Source: Oscillospiraceae bacterium
GTDB lineage: Bacteria > Bacillota > Clostridia > Oscillospirales > Ruminococcaceae
Direction of reading: 5' to 3'
DNA length: 64,000 bases
Assembly (NCBI GenBank): GCA_021199855.1
Contig: JAJQHD010000009.1
Location: 4,287-68,286 of the forward strand
In this document: positions 1,521-11,629 of the stretch, piece after piece
How the letters are laid out: each line of letters begins with the position of its first letter
Position numbering within the stretch: position 1 is the first letter of the stretch
Translations under genes and position numbers: made by a program
Notes under the pieces: generated by a model
Told to the model about the DNA's origin: nothing
Seen by the model: the letters and a program-made list of their open reading frames with translations, nothing else
Database searches by the model: none

Positions 1521-2189
1521 TTAATCTATGACCTTTCCGTCCTCAATCTTGATAACCACGTCTGCCTTTGCCGCAATTTCCGGGTCGTGGGTGACCATGA
1601 TGAGGGTCTGTCCGAATTGCTGGGCGCAATCACGAAGAAGCTGAATTGTCGTCTCGCCGTTCTTCTTGTCAAGGTTTCCCGTCGGCTCGTCGGCGAAGAT
1701 GAGCTGAGGCTTCGCAAGGACGGAGCGAGCTATAGCAACTCTCTGCTGTTCGCCGCCCGAAAGCTCGGTCGGGTATTTCTTCAGCTTGTCGGCAATTCCC
1801 AGAAGCTCCGTCACGTTCTGCAAAAACTCCGGGTCGGGCTTCTTGTTGTCGAGCTTCATCGGCATACAGATGTTGTTGAGGACGGTGTACTCGTCCAAAA
1901 GATTGAACTGCTGGAAGACAAATCCCATGTGCCTTCTTCTGAACTCCGCCATTTTGGCATCCGGATAAGAGTATAAATCCTCATCTCCGAGGTAGATATT
2001 GCCGGAAGTTGGCTCGTCGAGACCGCCCAAAATATGTAGAAGCGTCGACTTTCCGGAGCCGCTTCGACCGATAATCGTGTAGAAAAGACCCTCCTCAAAC
2101 TCGGCGCTGACGCCGTTCAGAGCGTGGGTTTCTCCCGATTCCGCCTTGTAGGTCTTGTAGATGTCCTTTGCTCTTAATACTGTACTCAT
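1521..2189 (-). CDS. ABC transporter ATP-binding protein (MacB/LolD/FtsE-like)
   Basis: Walker A GRSGSGKST, signature LSGGEQQR, Walker B LIFADEPTGNLD and H-loop VTHD. Confidence 0.95.
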   Translation of the reverse strand: MSTVLRAKDIYKTYKAESGETHALNGVSAEFEEGLFYTIIGRSGSGKSTLLHILGGLDEPTSGNIYLGDEDLYSYPDAKMAEFRRRHMGFVFQQFNLLDEYTVLNNICMPMKLDNKKPDPEFLQNVTELLGIADKLKKYPTELSGGEQQRVAIARSVLAKPQLIFADEPTGNLDKKNGETTIQLLRDCAQQFGQTLIMVTHDPEIAAKADVVIKIEDGKVID

Positions 2190-2234
2190 ATCAATTACTC
2201 CTCTTTTCAGAGAACTTTTTAGTCCTCTTTCAAT

Positions 2235-2263
2235 ATAATACCATATATTTCTGCCGCTGTCAA
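2235..2263 (-). promoter_or_regulatory. putative sigma-A promoter dedicated to the ATPase gene
   Basis: On the minus strand, TTGACA (2263-2258), a 17-nt spacer, then TATTAT (2240-2235), in the 124-nt gap between permease A and the ATPase gene. Confidence 0.5.
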
Positions 2264-2313
2264 CAGTTTTTTACGAACTTTTAAGAATTTCGTTTTGCCG
2301 TTTTCCGGCATTT

Positions 2314-4701
2314 TTACTCATTCTGTAGCATGTCCATCAGCTTGTACTTATTCAGCCCAAGCTTCGAGACGTAGCAGACCACGAACACTATTACAAACAG
2401 TGCCAGCGAGATAAGAAGCATTGTCCATGCTTCTATGTGGAAGCTTGCAAGCTCCTGGAGCTGGCTCCTGAAAGCTGTTTCAATCTCGGCAAGGCTCAGT
2501 GCTGACTCGCTGTCTGTAACGATTTTTAAGATGAGATACCCGAAGTATATTGCCCATCCGGCAACACTCGCAATAGCTCCGCGGATGATAGAGGCTACAA
2601 GCAGTCTGGTGTTTCTCTGCTTGCGGGACATTCCGAGAGCCTGCAGGATGCCGTATTTCTTCTTTTCCCGCTCCGTTTCAAGTCTGATGGTACTCGCGAG
2701 AATCAGAAGCGTTATGAACATGATGCACCCGCCGCTCACCCAGAACATGATAAGGGTCTGGAGATATTCACGTGCTTTGGATGAGTTTTCGGCTCTGTTG
2801 TTCATTGTAATCATCAGGGAATTTGCGTTCATTATCTTTGTGACAGCTTTGTCGGTCGAGAGATATTCGGCATTCATGTCGGTGAAAACGAGAACAGTCG
2901 TGAATCCAGCCGTGTCTCCGGCTGTGTAGGACGTTCCCCACATTGTGCCCTCTGGAAGAGCATCCAGAACCTTCTGCACGAACGCTGTAGAGCAGACTAT
3001 GTCATAGGTTTCGGGATAAAGGCTGTAGTTATAGCCAAGCCCTGATGAGCGGTAGTAGTCGCTCACTCCGCCGACAGTGGTTGTGAATTCTGTTCCAGAA
3101 ATAGTCAAAGTGATTTCATCGCCTGCCGCTGGGACTACCGATTTCGAATCGGTTGTGACCTTCATAAGAATAATGCTATCGCCCGAGTTGAAGCTCTCAA
3201 GGTCGGTGCAGGTGAAGTCTATCATCCCTTTCCAGCTGTCGGCTGAATCGACGACATAGACTGAAACCTCCTGAGCTTCGACTGAATCAGTTGTAAGGGA
3301 AGCCGATTGCTCAGAAAATCCCCATACTCCCGAAACTCCCGGAACAGCGGCAAGCTCACTGATGACATCATCCCCAAGATGCTGACCGGAAAAACTCAGG
3401 GTGTTCATAGCATAGTAGGAATATGTGGTTGTGTAGTATGTATAGTCAAAATACGGATCGAGCGAAAAGATGGTCGTGAAGACAACTGCCGAGCAGAAGA
3501 CAACACACATCGCTATAATCAAGCCTTTCTGGAATCTGCGGGAGAACTTTTGTTTTCCAACCTGCATTTCCATCCTGCCGGTAAGCGGAGTTGCGATGGA
3601 AATCTGGAACATAATCATCTTGACTATAAGAGTTCCCAGAATCCAGAGGAGTAAGAACATACTAAGATTCTTCCACGGAATACTCACTATAATTGCAATA
3701 GAGCCGGAGAAGACGCTTACCCTCAGCAAAATCCAGATGCCGATTGCACCGACAACAATTCCCGCAAGGAGAGATGGGATGCAGAGTATCAGCGTTTCAA
3801 CGGTCACCAAAAGCCTTATCTGTCCCTTGGATGCTCCAAGGCTTCTGAGCCGTACTGTTCTTCTTATGTCCGACTGCATCTGGAGGATATAGACAACCAC
3901 AATCGCTAAGATCGCAACTGCAAAGATAAGCCAGATGTAAACAGAGTTGAATTCCGCCTCGCTGTGATCCTGATAGGCATAGGAATTGAGCTTGACCTGC
4001 TTTCTGCTTGAGGCTACGTTTGAAGCCCTCGATTCCGAAAGATATGTATTGACTTCATCCGAAACGGTGTCCTCCATGCCGCTGGTGACGGTGAAGAAGT
4101 AGGAGACACTCGGAGTGACACCGTCAAAAATAGCCTCTGCGTCCTCTTCAGTTATAATTGCGCTGTTCAGAGTGTCGGTATAGTCCCAGAGGGTGGTGTA
4201 GGTTGAAATTACACCGGTCAGGGTGAAATTATGATAGATTATTTTATCATCGGATATTGTTATCGGCAGGGTGATTGTCTCTCCGATGGTGTAATCATAG
4301 CCGAGCTTATTGAGCACAGCCACTTCGACAGCAATCTCTCCGCTGTTCTCGGGAAGAGTTCCTTCCTCCAGATGGATTCCCATTTCAACGAATGCATCAT
4401 CGACCGTTCCGATTCCCTTGCCATTTACGGTGCCATATGTGACACTCTCGCCAACCTCATCAGCCCATTCAGTCGATTCAAGATACTCCGCGTCTCCATC
4501 CTGACCATAAACAATAGAGCCGTACCATGAGCCATAGATCGAGAAGCGATACTCCCGATTGGTCATCGCAATGCTGTTGGTGTAGCTTAGTAGCATGACA
4601 GCAAACGCAAACGTCACCATGAGTACAAGCACTATGAGAAGATTCTTCTTCCGCTTCCTCCATAAGCCCTGCACTGAAAGCTCAAAGATTGTTTTCAGCA
4701 T
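2314..4701 (-). CDS. FtsX-family ABC permease, double-FtsX type (paralog A, 795 aa)
   Basis: N-terminal TM helix after a basic RKRKK patch, a large extracytoplasmic domain, two TM bundles each with an FtsX-type ...G..KGQIR.../...LQALGMSRKQR... loop. Homologous to the ORFs at 4708 and 8919-11507. Confidence 0.9.
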   Translation of the reverse strand: MLKTIFELSVQGLWRKRKKNLLIVLVLMVTFAFAVMLLSYTNSIAMTNREYRFSIYGSWYGSIVYGQDGDAEYLESTEWADEVGESVTYGTVNGKGIGTVDDAFVEMGIHLEEGTLPENSGEIAVEVAVLNKLGYDYTIGETITLPITISDDKIIYHNFTLTGVISTYTTLWDYTDTLNSAIITEEDAEAIFDGVTPSVSYFFTVTSGMEDTVSDEVNTYLSESRASNVASSRKQVKLNSYAYQDHSEAEFNSVYIWLIFAVAILAIVVVYILQMQSDIRRTVRLRSLGASKGQIRLLVTVETLILCIPSLLAGIVVGAIGIWILLRVSVFSGSIAIIVSIPWKNLSMFLLLWILGTLIVKMIMFQISIATPLTGRMEMQVGKQKFSRRFQKGLIIAMCVVFCSAVVFTTIFSLDPYFDYTYYTTTYSYYAMNTLSFSGQHLGDDVISELAAVPGVSGVWGFSEQSASLTTDSVEAQEVSVYVVDSADSWKGMIDFTCTDLESFNSGDSIILMKVTTDSKSVVPAAGDEITLTISGTEFTTTVGGVSDYYRSSGLGYNYSLYPETYDIVCSTAFVQKVLDALPEGTMWGTSYTAGDTAGFTTVLVFTDMNAEYLSTDKAVTKIMNANSLMITMNNRAENSSKAREYLQTLIMFWVSGGCIMFITLLILASTIRLETEREKKKYGILQALGMSRKQRNTRLLVASIIRGAIASVAGWAIYFGYLILKIVTDSESALSLAEIETAFRSQLQELASFHIEAWTMLLISLALFVIVFVVCYVSKLGLNKYKLMDMLQNE

Positions 4702-4707
4702 TTCAGA

Positions 4708-7326
4708 TCACCGATCCTCTCTCAGCATCTCCATAATAGAATACTTATTTATCCCCAGCTTCGACCCGAAGCAGATTGCGAACGTGATTATGAACGCAAT
4801 GGCAAGAATTCCAAGAAGAACCGGCGTAGTCAGTCCGTACCCTGCAAGCTTTGCAAACATCGTTCCAGGCACGCTTACGGCACTTTCTCCGGCAGTAATA
4901 GCCGAGATATTCATGAGCAAGTAGTATGCAAGGTAGCTCACCACCGCCGCCGAGATTGCAATAACGCTTCTGATGATTGCTCGCCGTGCAAGCTCAATAT
5001 TGCGTTGCCGCCTGGACATTCCGATTGCCTGAAGTATTCCGTATCGCTTCTTCTCGCTCTCGGTTTCAAGGCGAAGCGTACTTACAAGAATCAGGAGAAC
5101 TACAATCGCTATGCAGGCGCCGCTTATGATGATCATAATCAGCGACTGCTGGTAGACTTCGGCATTGGCATGGTTGACTTCAAGGAAATTGTAAAGCTGG
5201 CAGTATTCAAGATACTTTATCTCTTTGGCTCCCACATCGCGTGCATACACAATCTGATCCATGATACTGGACACTGCCGCATCGGAGGCAAGGTCGCCGG
5301 CATTCATAGTGGTAAAGAGAAACGCCTGGGTGTATCCAACCTCCTGCTGTCCTTTGAAGAAGCTCTCATCCTCAATATACCAGCGTGTGCCTTCGGGAAT
5401 CTGGTCGACGAGGTTCTGGAGAACGGGCAGTGAGCAGATTACATAATATGTATAGCCTTCAAGGCTGTATCTTCCGGCACGGTCATATTCGAGAACCGAA
5501 ACGAGGGTCTCGTCGCTTTCTACGACCTGAACTGCGCCGGCATTCACGTTAACGCTTACTAATCCATCGCTTTCGAGACTGCTTGACGTGAGAACAGGGC
5601 TGATACGATAAAAGGGACTGCTGGAATGATATTCCGTAATCTTTTCATAATCGATATAAATTGTCATATCTGAGCTTTCAGCTGGGGCATTTGTCTCACT
5701 CCTGCTGCCGGAGACAACCTGAACTATTACACTTTCGCCGCTTTCGTAAGCTTTCTGGTCGACACCGGTTGTGTCGGCAAATTTCTGAACGTCGTCCCAA
5801 TCCATTGTGATGACGACTGCCGAGCTTGTTGTATCGCTTTCATCAGTGCCTACAAGAGCATAGAATCTGTTCATGCCCACGAAGTCGGAGATACCGGGTG
5901 CAGACAAAAACTGGTCTTTATATTCGGATAAATCCGGTAGCTGAAAGGAACCGGCTAGGTTTGTCCCATTGTCCTTTTCGCATATGAAATACGACCAGCG
6001 TGAAGTCCAATAGTTGTATTCGCTCAAGGGCTCTCCGATATTTACTGTTGTGAAGATAACCGAAACACACAGAAGTGTCGCCATAAGCATTACGAGAACT
6101 CTGCGGAATCCGACAACAACCCGATTTTTGCTTCTCTGAATTCCCATTCTTCCCGTCAAAGGCGTTGCAAGTGCAACCTGGAAAGTAATCATGCGGACCA
6201 AAAGTATTCCCGCAATCCATAAAGCAAGTGCCATTCCCAGGTAATTCCACGGAATACTCACTATGATTTCAGTTGAGCCGGAATATACGTTTACAGCAAG
6301 CAAGGCTTTGATTCCCAGGAAGCCGAGAAGTATTCCGAACAAAACGGCAGGAATTGCAAGCATAAGCGTCTCAATCAGTATGAGAACCCGGAGCTGACCT
6401 TTGGAACCGCCGATACTTCTGAATCTGACAATTCGCCTGACTTCAACCTGCATCTGCAAAATATAAATCATGACAACCGCTAGAATTGTTATTGCAAGCA
6501 CCAGCCAGAGGTAGACAAGATTTGTCTGAGCCGCTTCCGTCTCCATACCGACAACCTGATTTATGGTAACTGTTCTTACTGTTAAGCCTTCACGGCTCTG
6601 ATAGAGGAATTTGTTGACTAAAGATTCAATATTACTGTCGGTTGAATTGACGGTGAAGAAATATGTTGTTTCCGCATTGGCGATTTCGCTTCCTGCAAGA
6701 CTTCCTTTAGCTTCTGCAAGAATATCCTCCATAGCCTCTTCGGAAATAATCGCATTGTTGAGCGTGCTGTCAACATCCCAGAGACGTGTATATTCATTTA
6801 TAACTCCTACTATTTTGAAGTCTCTTTCAACCATTGCAAAAATTCCGTATTCGTCGTAAAGCACAAATTGCAAGGTTATTTTTCCGCCGAGACCGCAGTT
6901 AAGCTCCTCAAGCGTTGCCGCCTCAATTGCGATTCCACTTGAAGATGTCGGCATTTTTCCACTTTCTAAAGTAATGCCCATGTCGGTAAGGGCATCGTTA
7001 ACGGTTCCGACTTCTACTGAACCCACTGGAGAATCGGAGACGGTTACGGAGGCAGTGCCATAATTGACGCTCACGCCGACCTCGTCAACCCAGTCTTCAC
7101 TTTCGAGATATTCAAGATCGCTGTCCACGCCGTCCATGATAGCACCATACCATGAGCCGTAAGTATCAAGCCTCAATTGAGTGTTAGTCTCGGCGATGCT
7201 GGTGGTGTAGCTTAAGAGTATTATTGCGAACGTGAACGATATCAGAAGTACAAGGAATATAAGAAGCGACTGCCGTTTTCTTCGCCTGATACCCTCAAAA
7301 GCAAGCCCCAAAAGTGTTTTGAACAT
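4708..7326 (-). CDS. FtsX-family ABC permease, double-FtsX type (paralog B, 872 aa)
   Basis: Same architecture as paralog A and very similar to paralog C. For example LRLETESEKKRYGILQAIGMSRRQRNIEL is shared almost exactly. Confidence 0.9.
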   Translation of the reverse strand: MFKTLLGLAFEGIRRRKRQSLLIFLVLLISFTFAIILLSYTTSIAETNTQLRLDTYGSWYGAIMDGVDSDLEYLESEDWVDEVGVSVNYGTASVTVSDSPVGSVEVGTVNDALTDMGITLESGKMPTSSSGIAIEAATLEELNCGLGGKITLQFVLYDEYGIFAMVERDFKIVGVINEYTRLWDVDSTLNNAIISEEAMEDILAEAKGSLAGSEIANAETTYFFTVNSTDSNIESLVNKFLYQSREGLTVRTVTINQVVGMETEAAQTNLVYLWLVLAITILAVVMIYILQMQVEVRRIVRFRSIGGSKGQLRVLILIETLMLAIPAVLFGILLGFLGIKALLAVNVYSGSTEIIVSIPWNYLGMALALWIAGILLVRMITFQVALATPLTGRMGIQRSKNRVVVGFRRVLVMLMATLLCVSVIFTTVNIGEPLSEYNYWTSRWSYFICEKDNGTNLAGSFQLPDLSEYKDQFLSAPGISDFVGMNRFYALVGTDESDTTSSAVVITMDWDDVQKFADTTGVDQKAYESGESVIVQVVSGSRSETNAPAESSDMTIYIDYEKITEYHSSSPFYRISPVLTSSSLESDGLVSVNVNAGAVQVVESDETLVSVLEYDRAGRYSLEGYTYYVICSLPVLQNLVDQIPEGTRWYIEDESFFKGQQEVGYTQAFLFTTMNAGDLASDAAVSSIMDQIVYARDVGAKEIKYLEYCQLYNFLEVNHANAEVYQQSLIMIIISGACIAIVVLLILVSTLRLETESEKKRYGILQAIGMSRRQRNIELARRAIIRSVIAISAAVVSYLAYYLLMNISAITAGESAVSVPGTMFAKLAGYGLTTPVLLGILAIAFIITFAICFGSKLGINKYSIMEMLREDR

Positions 7327-7484
7327 TTATATCGCCCCCTAAAGTAGTGGAAATAAATATTAATTACAACCGTTGCAAGTAATAAATGATTCTGCATCAT
7401 TAAATATATATATTCAGCCCCGCGACCCTTTCCGCTAATCTGTGCACCGATAGCGGGAAGTCTCGACAAATGGACTGTAAGCTC

Positions 7485-7513
7485 ATGGTATCAAAAATCA
7501 AAAACATTGTCAA
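7485..7513 (-). promoter_or_regulatory. putative promoter of the permease B/A operon
   Basis: On the minus strand, TTGACA (7513-7508), a 17-nt spacer, then TACCAT (7490-7485). It lies 7 nt from the tandem palindrome. Confidence 0.5.
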
Positions 7514-7520
7514 CGTCCGA

Positions 7521-7559
7521 ATTTGCATGACGTGCAAATGATTTGCATGACATGCAAAT
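7521..7559. promoter_or_regulatory. tandem 19-bp palindromes, candidate operator or activator box
   Basis: ATTTGCATGACGTGCAAAT (7521-7539) and ATTTGCATGACATGCAAAT (7541-7559). Each is an ATTTGCA-N5-TGCAAAT inverted repeat. They sit between two divergent -35 boxes. Confidence 0.6.
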
Positions 7560-7568
7560 TTTCAAATC

Positions 7569-7597
7569 TGGACAAGCCACTTTTGATGTGATACAAT
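7569..7597 (+). promoter_or_regulatory. putative promoter of the small peptide gene
   Basis: TGGACA (7569-7574), a 17-nt spacer, then TACAAT (7592-7597), with TG at 7588-7589 three nt upstream of the -10 hexamer (near-extended -10). Confidence 0.5.
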
Positions 7598-7646
7598 GTA
7601 ATGGTAGTCCTAAGGCTATAAATAAAATCTATGAGAGGTAATTATA

Positions 7647-7853
7647 ATGAAAACAATGCAAAAACTTATGGCAATTATTGCCACTTTAACAATGACAGTT
7701 TCAATGGCTACGGTTTGCACAGTTGCGACTGACTATGTGGTAGACGCGCCGGAAGCTGAAATTGAATATCTTTCGGAAGATGACAATAAAGAGCCAGACA
7801 GTAACATTAATTGCGATCAGCCAGTGGATGAAGGCGAAGATGGAGAACTGTGA
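7647..7853 (+). CDS. small secreted acidic peptide precursor (68 aa), candidate signalling pro-peptide
   Basis: GAGAGG RBS 7 nt upstream of the ATG. N-terminal signal-like MKTMQKLMAIIATLTMTVSMATVCTVA, then a very acidic tail (...DQPVDEGEDGEL). The 3' end overlaps the regulator gene by 37 nt. Confidence 0.55.
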   Translation: MKTMQKLMAIIATLTMTVSMATVCTVATDYVVDAPEAEIEYLSEDDNKEPDSNINCDQPVDEGEDGEL

Positions 7854-8761
7854 ATATAGTATGTATTCAATATGTCATTGATTCCGGCTTTTATTCCACC
7901 TAAGTTCCATGTTTTTGACGTATATAAGCCTGATAATTCATCAATAAGCCTTTTTGCCTCTTCTTTGTCTCCTAACATATCACGGCGGACAAGTGCCCAG
8001 ATGCAGTTGTACATACAACTCGGAATCATGCAGATATTGTCTGTGTATTCACAACAAAGCGTTCCTTCCTTTGCGACATCTATACACTCATCGTATCTTC
8101 CGACTTCTCCGAGACACTTTGAAAGATTATAACAGATGTGAACCAGCTTTTTTGAAGCGGTATATTTGTCGACTTTATTGTCTTCTACACTTTTTAGACG
8201 ATAGTAAATCGAAATTGCAATGTTATAATCTTCCGCAACAGCGTAGGAATTTGCAATGTATCTTAGTATAAGCGCTTCCACATCGGTCATGAGCGTTGGT
8301 AAATTGTCTACACTGTAACTTGGATTTGTCAAGCGCATAGCTTTTTCCATGTTGGTAAGCCTATCTTTGTTGGTGATAGTGCCATCTTCATAGGCGATCA
8401 TAGTGTCTACAGTGTCGTAACGCTGTTTATTTGCCGAGGTTAAGCCTTCATACTCGTTGCTGATACTTTCAAGTAATGCCAACGCCTGATCTCTTTTGCC
8501 GTGTACACACGCCTGGCTGGCTTGACGAATTACTTGCCTGATTGCTTCATCATGTTCGTCGATGGAAATGCTTAATACCTCCGTAGGTAGTCCGAGACGC
8601 TCGAAAAGATGGATGAGAGTGTCATCTTTAGTGTCAACAAGACCTCGCTCTATTCTTGAATATGTGGAGATGTCACAAATACCAATACAAACATCTGATT
8701 GTGATTTCTTCAAGCTCTTGAGTCGTTCTTTTATCAACTTTCCAATAGCTATTTTATCCAT
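7817..8761 (-). CDS. XRE-type HTH plus TPR-like repeat transcriptional regulator (RRNPP/PlcR/Rgg-like architecture)
   Basis: N-terminal HTH (IGKLIKERLKSLKKSQSDVCIGICDISTYSRIERG) followed by about 250 aa of helical repeats. Length is 314 aa and an AGGAGGG RBS is present. Confidence 0.85.
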   Translation of the reverse strand: MDKIAIGKLIKERLKSLKKSQSDVCIGICDISTYSRIERGLVDTKDDTLIHLFERLGLPTEVLSISIDEHDEAIRQVIRQASQACVHGKRDQALALLESISNEYEGLTSANKQRYDTVDTMIAYEDGTITNKDRLTNMEKAMRLTNPSYSVDNLPTLMTDVEALILRYIANSYAVAEDYNIAISIYYRLKSVEDNKVDKYTASKKLVHICYNLSKCLGEVGRYDECIDVAKEGTLCCEYTDNICMIPSCMYNCIWALVRRDMLGDKEEAKRLIDELSGLYTSKTWNLGGIKAGINDILNTYYIHSSPSSPSSTG

Positions 8762-8918
8762 GCTAACCCTCCTAAGCCAATCTGCTCAGGACACAATCGA
8801 CTAAAAGCGTGATTTTAGCATATCATATTTCACACATACTGTCAAGTTTAGAACTTTCCAATCGTGCAAGTTGAAAACTGCCATTTGCTCAGCATCGGGG
8901 GTTATTCAAGGGTGGGTA

Positions 8919-11507
8919 TCACCTGTCCTCTCTCAACATCTCCATTATCGTATACTTATTTATCCCCATCTTCGACCCGAAGCAGATTGCGAACGTGATG
9001 AGGAATACTCCTGCAAGAATCCCAAGAAGCACCGGCGTGGTCAATCCGTATCCTGCCAAAGTCGAGAACATAGTTCCTAAGACCGCAATCGGGCTTGAGC
9101 CTTCTGCAATAATCGGAATATTCATCACTAGATAATAGCATAGATAGCTCACCACTGCCGCCGAGATTGAAATGACGCTTCTTATAGCGGCTCTTCTGCC
9201 AAGCTCGATGTTGCGCTGTCTTCGGGACATACCTATTGCCTGCAGGATGCCGTATCTCCTCTTCTCACTCTCGGTTTCAAGCCGCAGAGTGCTCACGAGA
9301 ATCAGGAGAACCACAAGTGCAATGCACACACCGCTGACAACAATCATTATCAGCGATTGCTGGTAAACCTGCGCGTTGGCGTAATTGATTTCACGCTGGT
9401 TATAAAGCTGGAAATAGTTAGTACTGCCACCAATTGCATCTTTATAACAAAGCTGTTTCAAAATATTGGTCATCGCCACATCTGCTGAAAGGTCTCCTGC
9501 GTTCATGTCGGTGAAGACATAAGCCTCGATATAACCGACCTCCTGCTGTCCCATGAAGCCTCTGTAGTTATTGGTACACCATTTGATTCCTTCGGGAACC
9601 TAATTGACAAGGTTCTGAATGACTGAATTAGAGCAGATTACATAATACGCCATATTTTCGAGCCAGTTGTCTTCCGCAAGGTCGGTTTCAAGAACGGAAA
9701 CCAGAGTATCCTCTCTGTCGATAACCTGAATCGAATCAACATTAACAGTGACAGTAGCCATATCAAGGCTTAAGTATGTGTCAGGGTAAAGTTGCCTGAG
9801 CAGGCTGTCTTCGGTGTAATCGTATCCATAGGCGACGGAAAGCGTTATTTCCGATGAGTCGGTCGGATTATACCCTGAAGTGTTGGAGGATGAAACAATC
9901 TGAACTATTACGGTTTCCCCATTCTCGAAGGCTTCCCTGTCAACTCCTGTCGTGTCGGCGTATTTTTCAATATCCTCCCAATCCATAGCAACTGCCATGC
10001 CATACATTGTGATTACGCTATCATCTGAAGAGGATACAACGGCAGTGAAGCTGTTGAAGCCTATAAGGTCCGATACTCCCGGGACAGAAAGAAACATGTC
10101 TTCATAGTCGGATACATACGGCGTCTGATTGACAAGAAGCGTTTGGTTTTCGCATAAGTAATAAGACCAAAGGGAGGACCAGTAGTTGTATTCGCTTGCG
10201 GGTTCGGCGATGTTGACTGTGGTGAAGACCGCCGAGACGCACAAGAGCGTCGCCATAAGCATAATCAAGGCTCTTCTGAAGCCGCCGACAAGCTTTGCCT
10301 TGCTTCTCTGCATTCCCATTCTGCCAGTCAGGGGAGTTGCAAGTGCTACCTGGAAAGTAATCATCCTGACGGCTAAGATCCCGACAATCCACAAAGCAAG
10401 TGCTTCCATAAGAGAGCTCCACGGTACACTTACCGCAATATCGACCGAGCCGCTGTAGACGCTGAGACCCAGAACTATTCTGATTCCCAGCAGTCCAAGC
10501 AGTATTCCAAGTATTATTGCCGGAATTGCGAGCATAAGCGTTTCTATGAGGATGAGTAGTCTCAGCTGACCCTTGGAGCCGCCGATGCTTCTGAATCGAA
10601 CGATGCACTTTACTTCCACCTGCATCTGCAAGATGTAAATCATGACGACTGCTAAGATAGTTATCGCAAGAATAAGAGCAAGATAGACTATATTGGTCTG
10701 CGCCGCTTCGGTTTCCATTTCCGTGACGGGATTTATGCTGACCGTTCTGAATGAAGAGCCCTCACGAATGCTGTAGAGATACTTGTTCACGTTGCTCTCA
10801 ACACTGCTTTCCATGCCCGATTTTACGGTGAAGAAATAGGTAGTGTCGTGAGTATAATACATATTTTCGCCAATCTGAGACTCCGCCTCGGCTACTATCC
10901 CCGCCATTGCCTCTTCGGTTATGATTGCGGTGTTAAGCGTCGAGTCAACGCTCCAGAGACCGGTGTATTCGCTGATGGCACCGACAATCTTGAACGTCCT
11001 TTCAACAGTGACCGCTTCTTCCTGATACTGATCATAATAGAAGGCAAACTGCAGCGTGATTGTGCCGCCAATGTTATAGTTGATTTCAGAAAGGGTCGCC
11101 GATTCTATAGCTATCTCGTTGGTTGCATCAGGCATACTTCCACTTTCGAGATTTATTCCCATTTCGACGAGGTCTTCGTCAGCCGTACCTATTTCGAGCG
11201 AGCCTTGCGAAATCCCGCCGACAATTACAGAAGCCTTGCCATAGTTGATGCTTGTTCCGACATCGTCAACAAAATCTGCGTTTTCGAGATACTCAAGATC
11301 GCTGTCGACGCCATCGGTAATCACCCCATACCACGAGCCGTATGTATCAAGCCTCAGCAGTGAGTTGGTATCGGCAATACTTGAGGTGTAGCTCAGGAGA
11401 ATAATCGCAAAAGTGAACGATATGAGCAGGACGAAGAAGATAAGAAGCGATTGCCTGCGCCTGCGTTTTATGCCTTCAAAGGCAAGAGGAAATATAGTTT
11501 TCAGCAT
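8919..11507 (-). pseudogene. FtsX-family ABC permease paralog C, interrupted by one in-frame TAG
   Basis: ORFs 9600..11507 and 8919..9554 are in the same frame. ...IQNLVN-TAG-VPEGIKW...GQQEVGY aligns with paralog B ...LQNLVDQIPEGTRW...GQQEVGY, so TAG (9602-9600) replaces the Gln codon. Confidence 0.85.
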
Positions 11508-11629
11508 GTTGATGATTCTCCTTTTCCAGCAATCAATTAAAAGATAATCTCACTATACCATAATTTTTCCAATTTGTCAACCCTGTTTTGACAGAAATTT
11601 TCATTTTTCACGTTGAGTGGAACAGAAAA

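Follow-up and report, generated by a model that had tools for sequence, protein, structure and literature searches.

The two 19-bp palindromic boxes that lie between a pair of divergent promoters in this DNA are probably the operator of the adjacent PlcR-like quorum-sensing activator, which would drive both promoters from them. The window, by which we mean the whole 64,000-nucleotide stretch that was analysed, carries box 1, ATTTGCATGACGTGCAAAT (ATTTGCAT-GAC-GTGCAAAT), at 7521-7539, proximal to the minus-strand promoter P(-), and box 2, ATTTGCATGACATGCAAAT (ATTTGCAT-GAC-ATGCAAAT), at 7541-7559, proximal to the plus-strand promoter P(+). A single G separates the boxes, and their centres are 20 bp apart. 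Box 2 is a perfect 9-1-9 palindrome, box 1 read as 8-3-8 has a single arm mismatch (the G at 7532), and the best reading of the unit is the 19-bp 8-3-8 form, ATTTGCAT-N3-ATGCAAAT. P(-), at 7485-7513 on the minus strand, consists of TTGACA (7513-7508), a 17-nt spacer and TG-n-TACCAT (7493-7485), the corresponding plus-strand letters being TGTCAA at 7508-7513 and ATGGTA at 7485-7490. P(+), at 7569-7597 on the plus strand, consists of TGGACA (7569-7574), again 17 nt, and TG-n-TACAAT (7589-7597), with the propeptide gene downstream. Box 1 stands 7 nt from the -35 hexamer of P(-) and box 2 stands 9 nt from that of P(+). An earlier note on this DNA had described the tandem palindromes with these gaps and with 17 nt in both spacers; its coordinates are right to the base, the distances agree with the sequence, and the promoters it named (TTGACA-17-TACCAT on the minus strand, TGGACA-17-TACAAT on the plus strand) were found independently by a promoter consensus scan, in which each scores 10/12 with a TG extended -10. 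Transcription is predicted to start near 7478 from P(-) and at 7603-7604 from P(+), which would place the centre of box 1 at about -52 from the P(-) start and about -74 from the P(+) start, and the centre of box 2 at about -54 from the P(+) start.

Two copies of such a motif 20 bp apart cannot be a product of chance. When up to two mismatches were allowed, ATTTGCA-N5-TGCAAAT occurred in the window only at boxes 1 and 2, with 0.30 occurrences expected from shuffled sequence. The whole 2.31-Mb genome holds three exact copies, while arithmetic from its G+C content of 47% gives an expectation of about 0.01. Judging by the 20 related cassettes described below, the box pair appears to be functional and not accidental.

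The neighbouring gene (7817-8761, minus strand) encodes a 314-aa PlcR-like regulator of the RRNPP type, with an XRE-type HTH and TPR-like repeats. Its Pfam matches are RNPP_C (E 2.7e-4), HTH_3 over residues 10-62 (E 0.0023) and TPR_2, all of them below the curated cut-offs. A profile of nine family members aligns to residues 1-289 of PlcR, i.e. its full length, with an E value of 2e-6, and it matches PrgX, Rgg2 and ComR in their HTH regions as well. The AlphaFold2 model of the regulator (pLDDT 88, pTM 0.85) has N-terminal helices at residues 3-17, 21-25, 31-38 and 46-55, the recognition helix in the model being residues 31-38 (ISTYSRIE). In Foldseek searches the top PDB matches of the model were 3U3W (PlcR-PapR7-DNA) and 2QFC (PlcR-PapR), followed by ComR and Rgg2, and the structures 4YV6, 6W1A and 5JUB of the Rgg/ComR group appear in the profile and fold matches. 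The regulator is accordingly modelled with a PlcR-like fold. The traits of RRNPP systems are present, namely an N-terminal XRE-type HTH, a C-terminal TPR-like domain and a neighbouring gene for a secreted propeptide. The latter, at 7647-7853 on the plus strand, encodes 68 aa with a signal-peptide-like N-terminus behind the RBS GAGAGG, and is convergent with the regulator gene, which it overlaps by 37 bp; in relatives a homologous gene of 68-79 aa occupies the same convergent place. Terminator-like hairpins were seen at 7668-7684 (minus strand) and 8409-8426 (plus strand). Each lies within the coding sequence of the other convergent gene, so that the propeptide and regulator transcripts would overlap in antisense for hundreds of bases; the hairpin at 7668-7684 is not conserved in the orthologs.

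On the other side of the boxes, P(-) is followed by a leader of about 150 nt and then by the putative target operon (1521-7326, minus strand), which comprises the double-FtsX permeases B (4708-7326) and A (2314-4701) and an ABC ATPase (1521-2189), all on the minus strand. Orthologous operons stand behind the same boxes in relatives. The first part of the transcript contains a conserved 5' leader of about 70 nt (7411-7480, minus strand; TTACAG...CGAGACTT...GGGTCG...CTGAATA), starting where transcription of the target operon is predicted to begin. It folds as a nested hairpin in RNAalifold, with compensatory changes at 6 of 20 pairs and a weak covariation term, and is kept between cassettes whose regulators share just 40-50% identity. 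The same leader is found at G000:C1 ~715-802 and G000:C39 ~200-278, as well as in L020, L024, L030, L031, L040-L042, L044 and L045; in the window's own genome it is confined to the three cassettes. A comparison of positions 7200-7900 with Rfam returned noise-level matches alone, and the leader has no Rfam family.

Conservation in close relatives indicates which parts of the boxes matter. Regulators that are 61-69% identical to that of the window are encoded in seven other assemblies (G003, G013, G021, U.10_1, L029, L030 and L031), the relatives being MAGs labelled Ruminococcus sp. or Oscillospiraceae bacterium. All seven have a tandem pair of boxes at the corresponding position, in the order TGTCAA, 7 nt, box, 1 nt (2 nt in L029), box, 9 nt, TGGACA, 17 nt, TGnTAnnnT. 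Because four tandem cassettes are near-identical, the set amounts to about five independent lineages. Across these five lineages 24 of the 32 arm positions are invariant, as against 6 of 22 in the central triplets and spacer (Fisher p = 8e-4), and the TTGCA core is invariant in 28/28 half-sites of the tandem clade. The flanks of the boxes drift like the central triplet, and conserved arms around a free centre give the boxes the look of a dimeric HTH site. A third, single box, AATTGCACGCCATGCAAAT, lies inside the operon of G003, G013 and G021, 7 nt upstream of TTGACA-17-TACTAT; a second permease gene follows it, as does a cysteine-rich peptide gene in the case of G013 and G021. Since this lone box stands beside one -35 hexamer, one box together with one -35 would be a working unit. 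In the regulator tree the seven tandem cassettes that were included form one clade (support 100/99), so that one duplication explains the box pair, and the tandem arrangement thus appears to be a derived duplication within a single clade that includes the window.

The same plan extends to a wider family. Twenty cassettes, with regulators 34-100% identical, all fit one bidirectional template, in which a -10 element is followed by 17 nt, TGTCAA, a gap, one to three boxes of 19 bp, 9 nt, a TGGACA-like hexamer, 17 nt and TGnTAnnnT, with the propeptide gene convergent with the regulator. Both promoter spacers measure 17 nt in 20/20 cassettes, and the gap between the box and the propeptide -35 is 9 nt in 19/20, the exception being L020 with 8 nt. 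On the side of the other -35, 16 cassettes have a gap of 7 nt, two (the C1/L024 clade) a gap of 3 nt and two (L007 and L008) a gap of 9 nt. Throughout the 20 cassettes the box is a 19-bp 8-3-8 palindrome, and in none of them does a box overlap a -35 or a -10 element. The commonest state is a single box between two -35 hexamers that are 31-37 bp apart. The earlier proposal of a site that abuts the -35 boxes of the divergent promoters and is shared by both is therefore supported by comparative evidence, whereas its wording of one dimer site per promoter suits the window's pair and does not hold as a general rule, because most relatives have a single box.

The sequence of the box differs between cassettes. 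In the window's genome there are two paralogous cassettes, C39 (47% regulator identity) and C1 (41%). C39 and L040 have CGTTGCGT-GGG-ACGCAACG, with close variants in L041 and L045, and C1 has three boxes of the form ACTTTCAC-GAA-CTGCAAAA with a 19-bp period. The boxes elsewhere are TTGTGAGT-AAT-ACTCACAA in L020, ACTTTCCG-ATC-GTGCAAGT in L042 and L044, ATTTTCAC-GAA-CTGAAAAT in L024, ATTTTCAA-AAT-GTGAAAAT in L043, TGGAAAAT-TTA-ATTTTCCA in L007 and GGGAAAAT-TTA-ATTTTCCC in L008.

In the mechanism that we propose, the regulator would be made from its own promoter, and the 68-aa propeptide would be exported, processed and re-imported, the genome having three OppA-type (PF00496) genes that are candidates for the last step. 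The peptide-bound dimer would bind each ATTTGCAT-N3-ATGCAAAT box through its XRE-type HTH and, given the 20-bp distance between the centres, two dimers would be expected on the same face of the DNA. The bound protein would aid RNA polymerase at both promoters, acting from 9 nt upstream of the -35 at the propeptide gene and from 7 nt upstream at the ABC/FtsX operon. In this way the signal would reinforce its own production, and the transporter operon would be expressed in a density-dependent manner. That the regulator physically binds the boxes, that it depends on the peptide and that it activates are elements that we infer from sequence.

The closest known counterpart is the PlcR/PapR system of the Bacillus cereus group, which likewise combines an HTH and TPR-like regulator, an adjoining Sec-type propeptide gene and a palindromic operator upstream of the -35. 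PlcR is an activator that binds upstream of the -35 of sigma-A-type promoters, and one of its boxes can serve divergent genes; the box is a 16-bp 6-4-6 sequence (TATGnAnnnnTnCATA / ATGhAwwwwTdCAT), with 28 active boxes in a dispersed regulon and a variable distance to the -35 (PMC2464732). The half-site cores are alike (TATGCA in PlcR, TTTGCA here). However, the boxes described here are 19 bp long (8-3-8), have one more bp between their TGCA cores and are set at a fixed distance from the -35, in a local regulon and in one to three tandem copies. The propeptide gene is convergent and overlapping here, whereas in the PlcR system it is downstream and co-directional, and the identity between the regulator and PlcR is about 19%. 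The box thus appears to work like a PlcR box but not to be one. RstA of Clostridioides difficile is another clostridial RRNPP regulator that acts on inverted repeats, but there the protein is a repressor, the imperfect repeats overlap the -35 and -10 elements and no consensus box could be defined (PMC6414698), as opposed to the sharply defined box upstream of the -35 in our cassettes.

These comparisons bear on the sign of regulation, and we infer activation rather than repression from the geometry only. The boxes are clear of the -35 and -10 elements and at a fixed distance from the -35; as PlcR activates from upstream and the RstA repeats overlap the promoter, activation is favored. The predicted box centres near -52 and -54, which depend on predicted starts, are not classical class I or class II activator positions. 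The most serious alternative, although we consider it unlikely, is that the same regulator uses the same boxes with the opposite sign, so that binding in the peptide-free state represses both promoters and imported peptide releases them. Both promoters are near consensus with an extended -10, look self-sufficient and might fire without an activator, which leaves room for a repressor. TprA/PhrA, PrgX and Rgg3 are described as peptide-relieved repressors. Both signs are found within the RRNPP family (PMC6414698), and two or three adjacent dimers could build a larger repressing complex or block contacts of the alpha-CTD. On the other hand, the core elements are left free in all 20 cassettes, and in most of them the only box has its centre 16-18 bp away from each -35, where it is badly placed for a steric block. 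Moreover, the RRNPP repressor sites that have been documented extend over the core promoter, and PlcR, the nearest structural relative of the regulator, is an activator.

Other well-studied systems share parts of the arrangement. TprA/PhrA of Streptococcus pneumoniae is a PlcR-like system that controls a lantibiotic cluster, with TprA described as a repressor that is relieved by peptide. The likeness is that a PlcR-like regulator and a secreted peptide control an adjacent antimicrobial-peptide/ABC locus as well as the peptide gene; gene order and operator layout differ. The streptococcal Rgg2/Rgg3-SHP and ComR-ComS systems have RRNPP receptors on an inverted repeat immediately upstream of the pheromone promoter and of neighbouring target promoters, with positive feedback. 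Their pheromones, however, are short and leave the cell without a Sec signal, those of the Rgg/SHP type being leaderless and hydrophobic and about 20-35 aa long, in contrast to the 68-aa propeptide with its signal-peptide-like N-terminus. The ComR box replaces the -35, which is kept in our cassettes, and the fold matches to Rgg2 and ComR are weaker than those to PlcR. Finally, in the lambdoid phages OR1-OR3 are adjacent palindromic sites for HTH dimers between the back-to-back promoters PR and PRM. The window resembles them in that adjoining palindromes lie between divergent promoters at a spacing that would allow dimer-dimer contact, but the lambda operators overlap their promoters and mainly repress, and the proteins are unrelated beyond the HTH.

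Regardless of sign, the neighbouring regulator is well supported by sequence comparison as the binding partner of the boxes, which are very probably docking sites of this PlcR-like, presumably peptide-sensing protein. When regulator residues 29-35 (helix 31-38 plus N-cap) were compared with the half-site, at least five helix/box classes emerged across the paralogs, in which the box sequence follows the recognition helix: CD[IV]S[ST][YF]S goes with ATTTGCAT, CTASTLS or CTPSTLS with ACTTGCAY, CNKSTLM with CGTTGCRT, CS[IA][ST][ST][LM]S with ATTTTCAC and CAPATMS with GGGAAAAT. Two box forecasts were drawn from the helix sequence alone and then compared with cassettes P0009 and P0011. The former (CNKSTLM) has the box CGTTGCATGACGTGCAACG and agreed with the forecast in full, while in the latter (CTASTLS), with the box ACTTTCCGATCGTGCAAGT, one half-site, ACTTGCAC, was as forecast. 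Together with the fixed box position in 20 cassettes and the conserved arms, this co-variation supports the suggestion of the earlier note that the adjacent HTH-TPR regulator is the ligand.

The regulator's own promoter (8817-8871, minus strand; TTGACA at 8845-8840, 17 nt, TATGCT) carries a different 19-bp box, ACTTGCAC-GAT-TGGAAAGT, at 8871-8853 on the minus strand, 7 nt upstream of the -35. This box recurs in the same position before the regulator gene in at least nine cassettes, irrespective of the target box that each of them has. Its sequence is that of the L042/L044 target boxes, and its nearest relatives in the window's genome are the three boxes of the C1 cassette. The presence of a foreign box at this promoter hints at cross-wiring between paralogous systems; G021 seems to be without a regulator cognate to it.

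Such cross-wiring is a point in favor of a second alternative, namely that the target boxes are bound by a non-local factor, e.g. a global regulator, and that the neighbouring regulator acts elsewhere: a box common to cassettes of differing specificity suggests that regulators may act across systems. We regard this as very unlikely. The target box changes cassette by cassette with the local helix, and the presence of three cassettes with three different boxes in one genome speaks against a common global factor. In addition, a global factor would have a dispersed regulon, whereas the whole-genome motif search that the earlier note had proposed for defining a regulon, carried out in four genomes, found the ATTTGCAT motif with promoter geometry at this locus alone. 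CodY-like and Rex-like global factors were considered as ligands and rejected; their motifs resemble some paralog boxes but differ from these in half-site spacing. Least probable is that the palindromes have no protein ligand and are remnants of a duplicated repeat or RNA hairpins such as a read-through terminator, for although each box can fold as an 8-bp hairpin and the regulator transcript could in principle read through into them, no T-run follows the boxes on either strand, the terminator scan made no call, there is no Rfam match, and the arms are kept as sequence and not just as pairing, with the exact 7- and 9-nt distances preserved across 34-100% identity as in a DNA site.

With the motif promoter-associated only here, the regulon of the neighbouring regulator would be local, comprising the ABC/FtsX operon and, in relatives, cysteine-rich secreted peptides. 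Two further copies of the motif were considered as regulon members and rejected. The exact copy ATTTGCATGATATGCAAAT at G000:C6:662-680 is part of the coding sequence of a gerAB-like gene, with a gerAC-like gene about 105 bp further on, and has no promoter geometry; it is identical to box 2 of the relatives, and the orthologs of its host gene in G003, G010 and G013 do not have it. This copy is improbable by chance and has no evident function. The other, at C17:245797, has one mismatch and lies within the coding sequence of an ABC transporter.

The relatives also shed light on what the boxes may control. In these genomes the box-controlled operon has, beside the FtsX permeases, genes for cysteine-rich secreted peptides, of 63 aa in G003 and G021 and about 107 aa in G013 and G021, with others in L031, L041 and L045. 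They are the first genes behind boxes at L013 10450-10641, L014 2848-3039 and ~5930-6250, L015 ~8534-8850 and L031 ~5250-5560; examples are ...CENCGEG...CDYCGHDWYA and ...CPLCGN...CGCGCNG...CGCCE. Because the relatives' operon encodes such peptides, the target operon is probably a bacteriocin-like production or immunity locus. Cysteine-rich peptide genes are absent from the window's genome, where they were lost or never present. Box 1 of the window with its flank (TGTCAACGTCCGA followed by ATTTGCATGACGTGCAAAT) and the internal box of the relatives together with its own flank (TGTCAACGTCCGG followed by ATTTGCATGGCGTGCAATT) are near-identical, and P(-) with box 1 matches the internal promoter of the relatives, not their first. 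Given this likeness of the flanks, it looks as though copies of the box had rearranged with each other to give the layout in the window.

Switches in which an RRNPP operator stands upstream of the promoters for pheromone and targets are well known as a kind. What is new is this particular operator, its rigid bidirectional 7-19-9 template, the series of one to three copies and the helix/box classes, and by sequence the family appears to be an undescribed subfamily with an unusually rigid layout. Our literature searches found no description of this regulator/operator family. A scan of JGI metagenomes with the regulator alignment yielded no relatives, and annotated plasmid and phage records yielded distant relatives alone (about 23-29% identical), namely HTH proteins of Bacillus plasmids and faecal phage contigs that carry no annotation. 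PlcR/Rgg-type peptide quorum sensing has been studied well in bacilli and streptococci but hardly at all in gut Oscillospiraceae. The sequence here is enough to recognize the operator with its two promoters, the genes of signal and receptor, and the target operon, and the locus points to density-controlled bacteriocin-like loci in uncultured gut relatives of Ruminococcus. The natural series of helix/box specificities and box copy numbers makes the family a compact system for the evolution of HTH specificity and operator multiplicity. As a more speculative and, taken as a whole, rather doubtful extension, the family could consist of modular peptide switches that are insulated from one another (three cassettes in this genome), in which the number of boxes (1-3, with a 19-21-bp period) would tune sharpness or strength, the foreign box at 8853-8871 would wire a hierarchy and the structured leader of about 70 nt would add control at the RNA level.

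Some further observations concern the surroundings of the cassettes. The propeptide gene of C39 (G000:C39 ~440-640) is broken after four codons (ATGAAAAAGCATTAA), and one additional A in the A-run restores a frame of 68 aa; a frameshift, phase variation and an error of assembly are possible reasons for the break. In the window, the amber-split permease C gene (8919-11507) has its own near-consensus promoter at 11540-11600 on the minus strand (TTGACA, 17 nt, TGGTATAGT); this promoter carries no box, and the gene is outside the box-controlled unit. Several relatives have primase/D5-like and XRE genes directly beside the cassette (L014 1-1162, L015 13353-13787, L040 1-1617 and L045 1-1206). A module of about 170 bp upstream of the regulator, comprising the hairpin GCCAAAAGGGGGTAGCCCTTTTGG, the box and the promoter, is near-identical between cassettes whose regulators are about 50% identical, which, together with the primase/D5 neighbours, suggests the border of a mobile element or an exchange of modules.
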